The position numbers were made by a program, and so were the translations under genes. This document shows positions 2,350 to 21,463 of a DNA stretch of 38,157 nucleotides, piece after piece (positions within the stretch are counted from its first letter, which is position 1; the number at the start of each line of letters is the position of its first letter). The notes below the pieces were generated by a model. That model ran no database searches. It saw nothing but the letters and a program-made list of their open reading frames with translations, and was not told where the DNA came from. Source of the DNA: Anaerolineae bacterium (lineage in GTDB: Bacteria; Chloroflexota; Anaerolineae; B4-G1; DUEL01); NCBI GenBank assembly GCA_041082215.1, contig JBDOIF010000094.1, forward strand, positions 1 to 38,157. Reading direction: 5' to 3'.

Positions 2350-3552
2350 TCAGGGTGAAATGTCGGAGGTCAGCAGCTCTATTGCCAGCCGGGCATAGAC
2401 CTCGGCGGCGGCGCATACATCGTCCAGAGCGACCCACTCATCGGGAGCGTGGGCCTGACGGGGGTCGCCCGGGCCGAAGCCGACCGTGGGGATACCGGCT
2501 ATCCCCGCCGTGTAGGTCCCTTCAGTGGAAAAGCTCCAGAAGGTCACCCGGGGCCGTCGGCCCAGTTGGACCCGCGCCGCCCGCATCAGCGCTGTCACCA
2601 GGGGGTGTTCCTCTTCGATGACCCAGGGGGGGTAGAACTCCCGCGCCTGGCACAGGTAACCGGTGTAACTGGTGGCGGTGTACTCGGTCACCTGCACGTC
2701 GGCGCGCACCCCCTCCCGGGCGATGACCCGCCGGACTTCGGCCAGGGCCTTGGCCTCCGTCTCCCCCAGTGTCAGGCGGCGGTCCACAATGATGTCGCAG
2801 CGATCGGGCACGGCGTTTCGGCTGCTGGCCCGGCTGCGGACATCGGTCACTGCCAGAGTCCCCCGGCCCAGGAAGGGATCGTCCCCCAACTGGTCGGCCA
2901 GCAGCTCCAGGCCAAAGACCAGCCGTGCGGCGGTGTAGATGGCGTTCTCCCCCAATTCGGGCTGGGAGGCATGGGCGGAGCGGCCGTAAGTGGTGACCTG
3001 AAGCTCGATCCGTCCCCGCTGGCCCCGGGCCACCTGGAGGTCGGACGGCTCGGCGATCAGCACCCAATCGGGCCGGATCCCCTCTTCTTCGATCAGCACC
3101 CGACTGGCAAGCCCCTCGCACGGCTCCTCCTGCACCACACAGGCCACCACCACCCGCCCCTCCCGGAGCGCCCCCGTCCGCTGGAGCAGATGGGCGCCGT
3201 AAACCATCGCCGCCAGCCCTCCCTTCATATCGCAGGCCCCCAGCCCGTAGAGCCGCCCCCGCTCTATCTCCCCGCCGAAGGGGTCGTGGGTCCAGACCTC
3301 CGGGTTGCACAACGCTACGGTGTCCATATGGCCGTTGAGCATCAGGACCGGTCCCCCGTCCCCCCCGGCCCAGCCGACCACGTTGCCCATACGGTCGGAC
3401 CGCACGTTCTGGAGTCCCAGCCGCGTCATCTCCGCCGCGATCCGCTCTGCCAGCGCTCTCTCCTGGGTGGAAGGGCTGGGGATACGGACCAGGTCCTGGA
3501 GGAAAGTGGTGAGGGCTTTCTTTTCCCCCTCGTCAAGCCGGAGGTTTACCAT
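2350..3552 (-). CDS. M20 family metallohydrolase, YgeY-like
   Basis: GHMDTV, DMKGG, VQEExCEG, GQRGRxE, SAHASxPExGxNAI, FLGRGTL, DRRLTxGET, WSFST, GFGPG, AHAPDE. Start moved to ATG 3552 (GAGGTG SD); the 3576 start lies inside a heptamer repeat. Confidence 0.8.
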   Translation of the reverse strand: MVNLRLDEGEKKALTTFLQDLVRIPSPSTQERALAERIAAEMTRLGLQNVRSDRMGNVVGWAGGDGGPVLMLNGHMDTVALCNPEVWTHDPFGGEIERGRLYGLGACDMKGGLAAMVYGAHLLQRTGALREGRVVVACVVQEEPCEGLASRVLIEEEGIRPDWVLIAEPSDLQVARGQRGRIELQVTTYGRSAHASQPELGENAIYTAARLVFGLELLADQLGDDPFLGRGTLAVTDVRSRASSRNAVPDRCDIIVDRRLTLGETEAKALAEVRRVIAREGVRADVQVTEYTATSYTGYLCQAREFYPPWVIEEEHPLVTALMRAARVQLGRRPRVTFWSFSTEGTYTAGIAGIPTVGFGPGDPRQAHAPDEWVALDDVCAAAEVYARLAIELLTSDISP

Positions 3553-17287: not shown

Positions 17288-17791
17288 TTAGAACTTGCGG
17301 AAGGCCTCCCGCTTGGCCCCGCAGATCGGGCACCGGTCCGGCGGCTCCCCCTCCACGGTCCAGCCGCACGCCTCGCAGATGTACACATCCCCCACTTCGG
17401 CGTCCTTGCCAGCAAGGACCGCCTGGCGGGCCTGTTCGTACATCCCGGCGTGGACCTTTTCGGCTTCCAGCGCCCAGGTCATCGTGCGGACGGCCTTGTC
17501 CTCCTCCTGCAGGTTCGCCACTGCGCGGAAGGAGGGGTACATCTCGTCCACCTCATAGGTCTCCCCGTCAATGCCCGCCTGCAGGTTCTCCGCCGTCTGG
17601 CCGATCTTGCCCAGGGTGCGCAGGTGGTTGGTGGCGTGGACCTGCTCGGCGAAGGCGATGGCGCGGAAGAGGCGGGCGATGTTGGGGAAACCCTCCTGTT
17701 CTGCCCGGTCGGCGAAGATCAGGTACTTCATATGGGCCTGGCTCTCGCCAGCAAAGGCCGCTTCCAGATTGGCTTTTGTCATCTTGTGCAT
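17288..17791 (-). CDS. rbr: Rubrerythrin
   Basis: AFAGESQA, EQVHA, GETYE, EKVH di-iron motifs plus C-terminal rubredoxin CEACG...CPICG. Confidence 0.93.
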   Translation of the reverse strand: MHKMTKANLEAAFAGESQAHMKYLIFADRAEQEGFPNIARLFRAIAFAEQVHATNHLRTLGKIGQTAENLQAGIDGETYEVDEMYPSFRAVANLQEEDKAVRTMTWALEAEKVHAGMYEQARQAVLAGKDAEVGDVYICEACGWTVEGEPPDRCPICGAKREAFRKF

Positions 17792-17825: not shown

Positions 17826-17940
17826 TCGGGCGACCGCAGCTCGGGCGACCGCAGGTCGGGCGACCGCAGGTCGGGCGGCCGCAGGTCGGGCGACCGCAGG
17901 TCGGGCGACCGCAGCTCGGGCGACCGCAGGTCGCCCTTAC
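17826..17940. repeat. 15-bp tandem array x7 ending in a REP-like palindrome
   Basis: (tcgggcgaccgcag[g/c])x7 at 17826-17930 with one a>g variant, then tcgcccttac. Confidence 0.92.
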
Positions 17941-18329
17941 CCGGTCTTGATCTCCTGGCTGTTTTCCCACAGGCCGTGGATGTTGCAGTAGGAAAGCGCG
18001 ATCAGCGTGCCGGGCCCCTCCACCTGCATCGAAAGGGCGGCAACCGGGTGAGTATAGACTGGCCCCTGATTGGCCCCCTTCACCGATTCGCCGTGGGCTG
18101 TGAAGTCGAAGTGACCCACCTGGTAGATGAACTTGTCCCCTTCCGGCTGGAAATAGACATCAATCCAGCGGATGTGGTGCTCGGTGGTGTTGGGGTGGGG
18201 GATCTCCTTGCCCACACTCACCGTCACCAGGAAGGGCTTGCCCGCCTCCACCTTCTCCGGCGCCTCGATGACCGGCACGTGCTTTTCCGCCTTCCAATCT
18301 GCCGACTGAACTCTCTCACCGATCTTCAT
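17937..18329 (-). CDS. sor: Superoxide reductase, single-iron (neelaredoxin/class II SORL)
   Basis: EKHVP, HPNTTEHHIRWI, CNIHGLW; no desulforedoxin domain. Confidence 0.92.
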   Translation of the reverse strand: MKIGERVQSADWKAEKHVPVIEAPEKVEAGKPFLVTVSVGKEIPHPNTTEHHIRWIDVYFQPEGDKFIYQVGHFDFTAHGESVKGANQGPVYTHPVAALSMQVEGPGTLIALSYCNIHGLWENSQEIKTG

Positions 18330-18384: not shown

Positions 18385-18885
18385 TCAGGCTCCTCGCTTC
18401 TTCATCAGGCTGATGTCCTCCACCAGCGCCTCCAGGTCCTCCTCGTGTTCGACCTCGTCGGCCATAATCTGGACGGCCAGGTTGTAGGTGATGGGGTCTG
18501 CGTCTTTGGTGGCCTCCGCCATCTGCCGGTAGACCTCGATGGCGCACTGCTCGCCCCGGATGTTCTGCTCCAGCAGGGTCTCGACGTAGGGGTCCTCCGG
18601 CGGCTCGTAGCCGCAGTTGCTCATCTCATACCAGGCTTTGGGGCTCAGGGGAGGCGTGCCTCCGAGCTGGATGATGCGCAGGGAGAGCAGTTCGGCGTGC
18701 CCCAGTTCCTCGGTGGCGTGCTGCAGGAGCTCCGCTGCCACCGCCTCTCGCATCGGCCCCTTGGCCAGTTTGGCCCCGAGCCAGTACTGGTAGTAGGCCA
18801 GCCATTCGTCGGCGAAGGCCTTGTTCAACATCTCCAGCAGTTTGTCCACGTTGATGCCGATGATGGATTGTGCTTTCGTGCCCAT
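18385..18885 (-). CDS. Ferritin-like DPS-like (DPSL/thioferritin-type) protein
   Basis: ADEWLAYYQY, EELGHA, GEQCAI, DEVEHEED di-metal ligands and two Cys (NCGY, EQCA). Confidence 0.85.
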   Translation of the reverse strand: MGTKAQSIIGINVDKLLEMLNKAFADEWLAYYQYWLGAKLAKGPMREAVAAELLQHATEELGHAELLSLRIIQLGGTPPLSPKAWYEMSNCGYEPPEDPYVETLLEQNIRGEQCAIEVYRQMAEATKDADPITYNLAVQIMADEVEHEEDLEALVEDISLMKKRGA

Positions 18886-18943
18886 AGAATACCTCCTTAA
18901 AATTCTGCGGTTTGGTGATAACTGTCCATTTTATGGCAAAGCG

Positions 18944-19645
18944 TCAGGGTTTCCACACTTTCCAGACGTTGCCCACCAGATCCGGCCCTGGCTTCAGAGT
19001 CGGCTGCCCGGGGGTCCAGCCGGATGGGGTGGCCTCCGCCCCTTTTGCGGCGCGGACGTGCTGATAGGCCTGTATCTGGCGGATCAGCTCGTCGGGGTTG
19101 CGGCCTACTGGCGGGGTGAGGACCTCCATCGCCTGGATCACCCCATCGGGGTCAATGAGAAAGCGGCCGCGGATGTCCACCCCTGCTTCCTCATCATACA
19201 CCCCGTAGACAGTGCCGATCCGCCCGCCCTGATCGGAGAGCATCGGGAAGGGGATGCCCCCTTCGACCATTTTTGAAAGCTCTGTCTCGTTCCAGATCTT
19301 ATGGGTGAAGCGGCTATCGGTGCTGATGGAAAGGACCTCCACCCCCAGCTCCTTGAACTGTCCGTACCGGGCGGCAACTGCTGCCAGCTCGGTCGGTCAG
19401 ACAAAGGTGAAGTCGCCCGGGTAGAAGCAGAGGACAACCCATTTCCCCCGATAATCGGAGAGCTTCACATTTTTGAACCCCTTGCCGGGGATATACGCTG
19501 TGGCCTCGAAGTCAGGAGCCTCTTTACCCACACGTGCTACGGTCATCTCAGCCCTCCTTTCTGGTGGTCTCTCCTCCCCTGGTGGGGGTGGAGGCGGGAT
19601 CAAAGGACCCGCCGCAGGTTTTACACAGGAATCTACCTCTGGCAT
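18944..19645 (-). CDS. prxU: Selenocysteine-containing peroxiredoxin (PrxU-like, AhpC/Prx1 fold), 233 aa with in-frame UGA at 19397-19399
   Basis: The track ORFs 19397..19678 and 18944..19342 are in the same frame. Reading through gives [17 protein letters not shown], with UGA at the peroxidatic Cys position of FYPxDFTFVCPTE. AGGAGG SD precedes ATG 19645. Confidence 0.92.
19362..19396 (-). promoter_or_regulatory. Bacterial SECIS-like hairpin
   Basis: Directly after UGA: CCG ACCG-A-GC-U-GGCA [GCAGU] UGCC-GC-C-CGGU A CGG, with a bulged U and a G-first apical loop 16 nt downstream of the UGA. Confidence 0.7.
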
Positions 19646-19690
19646 GTCAACGTTCCTCCTTTCGCACTGACAGATCACCTCGCACTGCGT

Positions 19691-20128
19691 CTACTTTTTT
19701 GCCTCCAAACAGCGGGAGCAAAGGCCGTAGACACTCACCTCGTACCAGAGCGGATGGAAACCGTACCCGGCCAGTGCCTCCTCTGGCAGCGTGACCATCA
19801 TTTCGGGGGGCAGGTCAATGACGGCCTGACATCGCACACAGACCAGATGGGGGTGCGGGGGGAGGTTGCGGTCGTAGCGGCTGATGCCGTCCACCGTCAG
19901 CTCCCTGGTCGCACCCAGCTCCTTCAGCACGTGCAACGTCTTGTACACCGTGGCAAGGCTGAGCATAGGAAAATCGGCCGAGACCTGCCGGTAGATCTCC
20001 TCTGCGGTGGGGTGGGTGGGGCTTTCCAGGATTGCCCGGAGGATGGCCATCCTCTGCGGCGTCATCCGATGCCCACGGGCCCGCAGCCGGTCCGAAATGG
20101 TCGTAAGGTATTCTGATAAGTTCTCCAC
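19691..20128 (-). CDS. perR: Fur-family regulator, PerR-like
   Basis: RMTPQR, HPTAEEIY, SLATVYKTL, HPHLVCVRC and CSRC Zn site; heads a peroxide-defence operon. GTG 20128 follows an AAAGGA SD; TTG 20158 is too close to the -10. Confidence 0.8.
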   Translation of the reverse strand: MENLSEYLTTISDRLRARGHRMTPQRMAILRAILESPTHPTAEEIYRQVSADFPMLSLATVYKTLHVLKELGATRELTVDGISRYDRNLPPHPHLVCVRCQAVIDLPPEMMVTLPEEALAGYGFHPLWYEVSVYGLCSRCLEAKK

Positions 20129-20138
20129 CCTGTTTCCT

Positions 20139-20191
20139 TTTGGAGAATTGTTCTTCAAAGATAATTATACCATATTTGTTTTGATTGTCAA
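20139..20191 (-). promoter_or_regulatory. Consensus sigma70 promoter (TTGACA-N16-TATAAT) with a Fur/Per-like inverted repeat over the start site
   Basis: tgtcaa at 20186-91, attata at 20164-69; tttggagaa-ttg-ttcttcaaa at 20139-20159. Confidence 0.75.
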
Positions 20192-20278: not shown

Positions 20279-20356
20279 GAGAAGCGGCCGATGGCGGCTT
20301 GTCTCTTCCCCCAGGTGCGTTATACTAGAGATAACCGCTTCTCAAGGAGCAATCAG

Positions 20357-21463
20357 ATGCGATGTTGCTGGAACTTTTCGGCCGGGTTCTCCTTCCTTGC
20401 GGTCCTCATCGTCGCCCTGGCCCTGCTGGGGGCGGCCTGCCAGTCGCCCCTTCCCGGGCCAGCGCTCCCAGGGCAGGGACGGGTTTCAGAAATGGTCTCT
20501 GGCGACTGGATCGCCCTCTACTTCACCGCCCCCAACCGGCCTGCCCCCTCCGATCAGGACGGAATGCCGGATGCGGGGCTGGTTGCCCTCATCGGGGAGG
20601 CCCGTGAGCGCATTAATATGGCTGTTTACGAACTGAACCTGGAATCGGTGGCGGAGGCCCTGATTCAGGCGCACCAGCAGGGGGTCCGGGTGCGTCTGGT
20701 GACCGACGGCACCAACGCCGATGATGGGGTGGTGAGCCGGATCCGCCAGGCCGGCATCCCCGTTGTGGCTCGACCGCTGGAGGGAAGGGGGATCATGCAC
20801 AACAAGTTCGTTGTGGTGGACGGGCAATGGGTATGGACCGGCTCCTGGAATCCGACGGAGGGCGGCACTTACCGGAACGACAACAACGCTGTCCTCATCG
20901 CCTCCCGCGCGCTGGCCCGGGACTACGACGCTGAGTTCGAGGAGCTGTTCGGAGGGCAGTTCGGTCCGACCTCCCCGGCTGAAACCCCCTATCCCCTGGT
21001 CGAAATCGAAGGGCAGGGCCGGCCCGTGCAGGTCGAGGCCTACTTTGCGCCGGAGGACGGCGTGGCCGACCGGCTCCTCCAGCTCCTCTCCTCCGCCCGC
21101 TCCCACGTCCGTTTCCTTGCCTTTCAGTTCACCGCTCCCCGCCTCGCCGATGCGCTGGTGGACCTGGTGGGGGAGGGGGTTGATGTCGAAGGGGTGATGG
21201 AGGCCCAATCGGCTGAGAGTACCTACAGTCAGTACAATCGGCTGCAGGCGGGGGGGGTGGAGGTATTTCTGGACGGCAATCCCTACCTGATGCATCATAA
21301 GGTCCTGATCGTTGACGATCAGGTTGTGGCGCTGGGCTCGTACAATTTCACCACCAGTGCCGATAAGGACAACGATGAGAACCTGCTGATCATCCACGAT
21401 TCCGAGGTCGCAGGTGCCTTCCTGGCCGAATTCGAGCGCGTCCTGGGGGAGGCCGAAAGGTGA
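20357..21463 (+). CDS. Secreted or lipoprotein phospholipase D superfamily protein (two HKD motifs)
   Basis: HNKFVVVDG...GSWN and HHKVLIVDD...GSYN; hydrophobic signal ending LGAAC; AAGGAG SD before ATG 20357. Confidence 0.85.
   Translation: MRCCWNFSAGFSFLAVLIVALALLGAACQSPLPGPALPGQGRVSEMVSGDWIALYFTAPNRPAPSDQDGMPDAGLVALIGEARERINMAVYELNLESVAEALIQAHQQGVRVRLVTDGTNADDGVVSRIRQAGIPVVARPLEGRGIMHNKFVVVDGQWVWTGSWNPTEGGTYRNDNNAVLIASRALARDYDAEFEELFGGQFGPTSPAETPYPLVEIEGQGRPVQVEAYFAPEDGVADRLLQLLSSARSHVRFLAFQFTAPRLADALVDLVGEGVDVEGVMEAQSAESTYSQYNRLQAGGVEVFLDGNPYLMHHKVLIVDDQVVALGSYNFTTSADKDNDENLLIIHDSEVAGAFLAEFERVLGEAER

Follow-up and report, generated by a model that had tools for sequence, protein, structure and literature searches.

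Does an in-frame TGA codon at the catalytic position of a peroxiredoxin gene mark a damaged gene, a deviating genetic code or a genuine selenoprotein? This question is raised by a locus on the minus strand (19645..18944) of contig JBDOIF010000094.1 from the Anaerolineae bacterium assembly GCA_041082215.1, of which the whole stretch of 38,157 nucleotides (nt) was analysed (hereafter the window). We conclude, with very high confidence, that the locus is an intact prxU gene, encoding a thioredoxin-fold peroxiredoxin of the AhpC/Prx1 type with selenocysteine (Sec, U) as its peroxidatic residue; the in-frame TGA almost certainly encodes selenocysteine.

The gene is read in a single frame from the ATG at 19645 to the TGA stop codon at 18946-18944, and the only interruption of this frame is the TGA at 19399-19397. 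Two open reading frame (ORF) fragments, 19678..19397 and 19342..18944, share the frame and are separated by this codon, and translation of 19678..18944 with TGA read as U yields one unbroken peroxiredoxin. The plus strand carries TCA at 19397-19399, i.e. TGA on the minus strand, within the local reading TTC ACC TTT GTC TGA CCG ACC GAG, and the codon stands at the exact position of the peroxidatic Cys of peroxiredoxins (PGDFTFV-U-PTE). The first-pass annotation of the window, made from the sequence alone, had proposed that two in-frame ORF fragments are joined through a TGA replacing the catalytic Cys, and both the frame and the translation agree with it; the limits it gave, 18944-19645, correspond to the stop codon and to the ATG (19645-19643) of the longer of two possible forms of the protein.

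The assignment to the PrxU family was made with profile and sequence searches, for which Sec was entered as Cys. The long form matched the NCBIfam equivalog NF040737 ('peroxi_PrxU') with 391.5 bits over profile positions 2-230 of 233, and the short form with 383.9 bits, both far over the cut-off of 270. The next family was the AhpC equivalog TIGR03137, for which the score (195 bits) lies under the cut-off of 272 bits, and the protein is therefore not classified as AhpC; this was judged on the TIGR03137 score alone, no search having been made for AhpF, the partner of AhpC. Matches were also found to the Pfam domains AhpC-TSA (8.1e-41) and 1-cysPrx_C (24.6 bits), and the top solved structure by sequence was human Prx2 (1.4e-51). 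An AlphaFold2 model, built from 121 aligned sequences, reached a mean pLDDT (predicted local distance difference test) of 91.4. In a Foldseek search with this model the best solved match was again human Prx2 (7kj1; target-normalised TM-score 0.90, root-mean-square deviation 2.2 A, 46% identity), and 4mab was matched with a target-normalised TM-score of 0.93. The Prx1/AhpC-type fold with its C-terminal extension is thus present, according to both the model and the 1-cysPrx_C match. The catalytic Arg159 corresponds to the Arg in the AYRGLF segment of human Prx2 and does not vary in either of two alignments, of 18 and of 121 sequences.

A second match to NF040737 in the same genome (contig C26, 32112-32618; 71.4 bits), initially listed with one TGA, was rejected as a candidate: the gene encodes a conventional Cys peroxiredoxin (WTGVCKTQ) and terminates at the TGA in question.

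An obvious objection to a selenoprotein is that the TGA could have arisen by nonsense mutation or through a mistake in sequencing or assembly, in which case the locus would be a pseudogene or would in reality have a Cys codon. The codon is, after all, a single base away from TGC and TGT, the genome is a draft of 174 contigs, and the hairpin that follows the codon, when folded alone, is no better than chance. This explanation was confronted with the corresponding codon in other species. Species-representative genomes were scanned with an alignment of PrxU-type proteins, which gave 80 loci that are 66-87% identical and belong, by their record titles, to Chloroflexota, Thermodesulfobacteriota, Acidobacteriota, Bacillota and others; the nearest of them (locus L013) is 87% identical. 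The aligned codon is TGA in 79 of these loci and TGC in one (L032). A motif search alone had recovered 78 TGA and the single TGC, and the locus missed by the motif (L039) also has TGA (FTYV*PTE). The alignment of homologues, which had been suggested as a check for Cys/UGA pairing, shows such pairing, with TGA at the same codon almost throughout. Moreover, among 41 genomes (the window's own and those of relatives), 22 matches to NF040737 exceed the cut-off, and 20 of these contain one TGA, while one (G034) has TAA and one (G028) no stop codon.

The sole TGC locus, L032 (codon at 3232-3234; Acidobacteriota by record title), has kept both the arm Cys described below and a fully paired downstream hairpin, which suggests a recent change from Sec to Cys.

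The codon was also followed in independently assembled data, by placing contigs of four public runs on 18900-19700. Two of the runs, X2 and X3, belong to a different study from the possible source; each gave one contig over this segment, with four differences (18933, 19274, 19283 and 19588), and both contigs are unchanged at the UGA (19397-19399) and at the wobble base A18 of the downstream hairpin (19382). A contig from the RNA-library run X7 covers 19388-19700, with the UGA unchanged. TGC or TGT in the reads would have spoken against a selenoprotein; neither occurs in the contigs of the other runs, which are assembled contigs and not raw reads. The TGA shared by 79 of the 80 loci of other species and by 20 of the 22 matches above the cut-off, its retention in the contigs of two runs from another study, the frame that is open and conserved on either side of it, and the covarying hairpin 3' of it all stand against a mutation or an error. 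That explanation is effectively refuted, and we give it next to no credence.

A different objection arises from protein databases. In an alignment of the protein of the window with 120 relatives from databases (P0002-P0121), 121 rows in all, the residue shown at the Sec site is W in 95 rows and C in 22. These Trp residues might be taken to mean that TGA has been reassigned in this organism to Trp or Gly, both standard amino acids (codes 4 or 25), and that the residue is not Sec. Since TGG was found at this codon in none of the 80 genome loci, the W in the database rows is most simply, in our inference, a product of gene callers that translate TGA as Trp. One relative (P0117, 92% identical) is a 147-amino-acid (aa) fragment starting just after the UGA. 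The expectation that gene callers mishandle this gene is borne out by these rows.

The decoding capacity of the window's own genome (G000; 3.53 Mb, 174 contigs, 96% complete) agrees with selenocysteine. It encodes (i) SelA (459.6 bits), (ii) a SelB winged-helix 3 domain (83.3 bits) within a 632-aa open frame, (iii) SelD (330.4 bits), and (iv) one tRNA-Sec, for which ARAGORN reported the anticodon tca and which was the sole one of 17 matches to Rfam RF01852 above the gathering score (69.6 bits). The tRNA search of the window itself was negative, the tRNA-Sec being located on another contig. The selD gene has one in-frame TGA in the N-terminal active-site loop (SCAG-U-AGK), followed by a hairpin whose G-U occupies +37/+38 counted from the UGA, and it is thus itself a selenoprotein gene. 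The selA, selB, selC and selD genes, whose presence elsewhere in the genome had been predicted from the window, were all found, and their lack, which would have argued against Sec, does not apply to this 96% complete genome. Among the 49 tRNAs of the genome, the anticodon tca occurs only in tRNA-Sec, and tRNA-Trp has cca; TGA terminates the dps-like neighbour of prxU as well as prxU itself. Reassignment of TGA to Trp or Gly is excluded, because only tRNA-Sec reads UGA and because TGA ends genes here. With the full selABCD set present in addition, and with the W rows accounted for, this reassignment is extremely improbable, and Sec remains the residue at the site.

The hairpin expected of a bacterial selenocysteine insertion sequence (SECIS) was examined in two ways. 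When a 63-nt segment spanning the UGA and the sequence after it was folded as a single sequence, the minimum free energy (MFE) structure (-24.5 kcal/mol) was a hairpin at 19396-19362, carrying one bulged U and a loop of GCAGU. Lone folding was discarded as a SECIS test, being uninformative in this GC-rich coding sequence (z = -0.81), and covariation was used instead: as the lone fold is no better than shuffles, the reality of the hairpin rests on comparison. For this, 57 nt counted from the UGA (the U of UGA being column 1) were aligned from the window and 79 loci, giving 80 sequences without gaps, of which 79 distinct rows were counted.

This alignment revealed a straight helix of nine base pairs, formed by columns 13-21 with 24-32 (19387-19379 with 19376-19368 in the window). 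Paired cells make up 86.6% of this consensus helix, compared with 77.9 +/- 0.6% in shuffled alignments, and its covariation score is 0.318, compared with 0.161 +/- 0.011; none of 500 shuffles reached either observed value, and registers slid along the alignment scored 0.086-0.131. Changes on both sides occur at six pairs, among them 15-30 and 16-29. Pair 21-24 is GC in 39 of the 79 rows, AU in 38, GU in one and something else in one, and pair 18-27 is GC in 60, AU in 13, GU in three, CG in one and something else in two. Some of the substitutions are coupled at the amino-acid level, as where Thr (ACN) together with Val (GUC) gives A-U at pair 16-29. At the tip of the helix, G22 and U23 are invariant in all 80 sequences.

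In the SelB-binding SECIS tips of Escherichia coli fdhF and of Moorella, an invariant G-U lies over a covarying closing pair. By analogy with these elements, G22 and U23 of prxU are presumably the contact for SelB. The prxU element resembles those of fdhF and Moorella thermoacetica in forming a hairpin within translated sequence shortly after the UGA, topped by an invariant G-U over a covarying closing pair; it differs in having the G-U at +22/+23 and in a family register that needs no bulged U. The position of the G-U also distinguishes it from the selD element of the same genome (+37/+38). The first-pass annotation had described a SECIS-like hairpin with a bulged U, and one part of this description stands, namely a hairpin directly 3' of the UGA, which covaries; the bulged-U register was replaced by the straight helix with the G22-U23 tip. 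The register with the bulged U and GCAGU loop is slid by -3 relative to the consensus, reaches 78.2% pairable cells through the GCN-GCN periodicity of Ala codons and has a covariation score of only 0.109, and it was kept solely as an alternative for this one sequence.

Several points weigh against an intact, functional prxU and were considered together. Selenium incorporation, translation through the UGA and peroxidase activity are, for this gene, predictions from sequence. In the lone fold, 42 of 200 shuffles were equally or more stable (z = -0.81). The copy in the window is mismatched at U14.C31 and A18.C27 of the consensus helix, so that seven of the nine pairs are formed; it is one of only two of the 79 rows that are unpaired at 18-27, and L013, the closest of the 80 loci, pairs G18 with C27 there. 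Rare variants are lost in assembled contigs such as those of the runs, and the X7 contig is no proof of transcription, of its level or of its strand. There are two candidate start codons, 19645 and 19546. Finally, the regulator, Dps-like and rubrerythrin-like genes around prxU all score under their equivalog cut-offs, and the operon is described at the family level only.

The selenoprotein reading of the gene implies the following sequence of events, which is drawn from the established bacterial Sec pathway and from peroxiredoxin chemistry. SelB carrying Sec-tRNA(Sec) would bind the hairpin that lies 10-30 nt beyond the UGA, with G22 and U23 exposed at its tip, and this binding would lead to the insertion of Sec83 instead of termination. 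The selenolate of Sec83, held in P76-x3-T80-x2-U83 together with Arg159, would then attack the hydroperoxide and become a selenenic acid. The oxidised Sec83 would be recycled by means of another thiol, which may belong to a thioredoxin-like reductant acting directly, to Cys73, or to Cys7 of an N-terminal arm.

This arm comprises residues 1-33 of the long form (19547-19645, minus strand) and has the pattern M-x-E-x-K-D-G-C-V-x-P-A-x-G-P followed by a variable linker. Whether it is part of the product depends on the start codon, and both ATGs (19645 and 19546) have good ribosome-binding sites. The gene could be a true selenoprotein gene whose product is the 200-aa short form from the ATG at 19546, with the upstream 33 codons untranslated or forming a leader that is removed. 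The sequence AAAGGAGGG before this ATG is a good Shine-Dalgarno sequence, the arm is absent from 44 of the 121 rows, and PrxU of Eubacterium acidaminophilum is said to have about 203 residues. Set against this, 75 of the 80 loci preserve the amino-acid pattern of the arm (C-V-x-P-A-x-G-P), and many of them have neither Met nor another start codon at the internal position; the NF040737 profile takes in the arm, the long form scoring 7.6 bits more than the short one; and residues 11-20 have a mean pLDDT of 80 in the AlphaFold2 model. The many relatives that lack an internal start codon must, for their part, translate the arm. A product restricted to the short form is therefore unlikely, and the long form is the one followed here.

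The Cys at position 7, within the arm, recurs in 75 of 80 rows derived from DNA; of the database rows, 77 have an arm, and 75 of these show Cys at this position. At Cys73 (VVL-C-FYP), ten residues before Sec, all 80 DNA-derived rows and 115 of 120 database rows have Cys, at a position occupied by Phe in the usual VVLFFYP strand. The resolving Cys of typical 2-Cys peroxiredoxins, which forms a disulfide between subunits with the peroxidatic residue, is replaced by Thr206, and among the 121 rows this column has T in 101, A in 12 and C in four; the protein is accordingly not a typical 2-Cys peroxiredoxin. As Thr206 takes the place of the resolving Cys, recycling must use another thiol (a thioredoxin-like reductant directly, Cys73 or Cys7). 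A resolving or relay function of Cys73 is possible, and a resolving role of either Cys7 or Cys73 is put forward here as a hypothesis. In its fullest form, which we consider rather unlikely, this hypothesis holds that PrxU is not a '1-Cys-type' enzyme: the arm would fold back to the active site, either in the same subunit or in its partner, and Cys7 would resolve the selenenic acid as a thioredoxin-reducible Se-S bond, replacing the lost C-terminal Cys, while Cys73 could stand in for it or relay. Forms with and without the arm might then be made from the two ribosome-binding sites.

How does this gene compare with known systems? Sohling et al. reportedly described a selenocysteine-containing peroxiredoxin, PrxU, from Eubacterium (Peptoclostridium) acidaminophilum in 2001 (Biol Chem 382:979). 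The protein encoded in the window resembles this PrxU and the NF040737 family in the Sec at the peroxidatic site of TxxU, in a score far over the cut-off, in a SECIS directly 3' of the UGA, in the absence of the C-terminal resolving Cys and in an anaerobic host with selABCD. It differs in its host, which here is an uncultured hot-spring Chloroflexota/Anaerolineae-like bacterium and not a clostridium. Clostridial-type relatives have Ala directly after Sec (U-A-T-E, against U-P-T-E in the window) and G-C-x-R-P in the arm. Compared with typical 2-Cys peroxiredoxins (human Prx2 structures 7kj1, 1qmv and 5ijt; Salmonella AhpC, 4ma9), the protein shares the fold, the active-site motif, the conserved Arg and the C-terminal extension, but has Sec for the peroxidatic Cys, Thr206 for the resolving Cys, VVLCFYP for VVLFFYP, and an extra N-terminal arm of 33 residues with a conserved Cys.

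That Sec-peroxiredoxins are known, as had been stated from the outset, is confirmed by the curated model NF040737 and by two reviews. Both reviews (PMC13188914 and PMC9312934) list 'Peroxiredoxin (Prx), TxxU' and cite Sohling et al. 2001, and in PMC13188914 this entry is kept apart from families headed 'Predicted with high confidence'. Relatives at NCBI are already named 'thioredoxin-dependent peroxiredoxin'. The gene is an ordinary member of the known, widespread PrxU family with a curated equivalog, and nothing about it is new in kind; the less-described features are only the Cys-bearing N-terminal arm, the invariant Cys73 and the absent C-terminal resolving Cys. No description of the arm was found among the listed papers that name 'PrxU' or in the matching passages of the same two reviews.

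The coordinates of prxU, of its functional sites and of the neighbouring features are compiled in Table 1.

Table 1. Features of the prxU locus and its surroundings. Coordinates are those of the window unless another contig is named.
Feature	Position	Strand	Remarks
prxU coding sequence, long form	18944..19645	-	233 codons + TGA stop; ATG 19645-19643; AGGAGG 9 nt upstream
Internal ATG (Met34) of the short form (200 aa, Sec50)	19544..19546	-	preceded by AAAGGAGGG, a good Shine-Dalgarno sequence
In-frame UGA, Sec83 (Sec50 in the short form)	19397..19399	-	peroxidatic residue in P76-x3-T80-x2-U83
SECIS helix, family-consensus register	19368..19387	-	columns 13-32; nine pairs, seven formed in the window
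G22 and U23, tip of the SECIS hairpin	19377..19378	-	invariant in 80/80; presumed SelB contact
MFE hairpin, alternative register	19362..19396	-	bulged U, GCAGU loop; fold of the first-pass annotation
Cys7 codon, conserved N-terminal arm	19625..19627	-	Cys in 75/80 DNA-derived rows
Cys73 codon (VVL-C-FYP)	19427..19429	-	ten residues before Sec
Thr206 codon	19028..19030	-	position of the typical 2-Cys resolving Cys; EATPSGW here, EVCPAGW in human Prx2 (5ijt alignment)
Sigma-70-like promoter, TTGACA-16-TATAAT with upstream TG	20164..20191	-	12/12 hexamer matches; likely promoter of the perR-prxU operon; consensus match only
Fur-family regulator, most like PerR, directly upstream of prxU	19691..20158	-	NF052545 (PerR) 105 bits, under the 180-bit cut-off; family level; start codon uncertain
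Ferritin/Dps-like gene, downstream of prxU	18385..18885	-	NF040955 (Arch_DPS) 85 bits, under cut-off; family level
Superoxide reductase, neelaredoxin-type, ferrous iron-binding domain	17937..18329	-	TIGR00332 111.1 bits (cut-off 61.9)
Rubrerythrin-like gene	17288..17791	-	NF045783 and NF045767, both under cut-off; family level
selD UGA	G000 contig C139, 21816-21818 (locus L003)	-	selD itself a selenoprotein gene

On the same strand as prxU, and in the order 5' to 3', are found a sigma-70-like promoter, the Fur/PerR-like regulator, prxU, the Dps/ferritin-like gene, the superoxide reductase gene, a tandem repeat with a terminator-like site, and the rubrerythrin-like gene. This arrangement is consistent with an anaerobe's oxidative-stress operon. 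Three promoter-like sites were found in the region, compared with 0.5 +/- 0.8 in shuffled sequences. The site upstream of the regulator stops 6 nt short of the TTG given as the first codon of the Fur/PerR-like ORF, which means that the mRNA has almost no leader unless translation of the regulator begins further in.

A tandem repeat of 7.2 copies of the 15-bp unit TCGGGCGACCGCAGG (94% match; 17826-17933) lies in the gap that separates the superoxide reductase gene from the rubrerythrin-like one, and this repeat overlaps the terminator-like site (17836-17815, minus strand). A divergently oriented ORF of 390 aa (20291-21463, plus strand) has an N-terminal hydrophobic segment and two H-x-K-x4-D-like motifs (MHNKFVVVD and MHHKVLIVD), by which its product resembles proteins of the phospholipase D/HKD family.

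The practical value of the locus lies in annotation. PrxU is systematically mistranslated in metagenome catalogues, so that a wrong catalytic residue is given there for an antioxidant enzyme that is widespread in anaerobes, and some entries are fragments. For the enzyme itself, interest lies in the way Sec is regenerated from the selenenic acid in a protein lacking the C-terminal resolving Cys, and in the roles of the Cys-bearing arm and Cys73. For its host, prxU marks an uncultured hot-spring Chloroflexota-like bacterium as a selenium user, with selenocysteine in a probable oxidative-stress operon as well as in selD.

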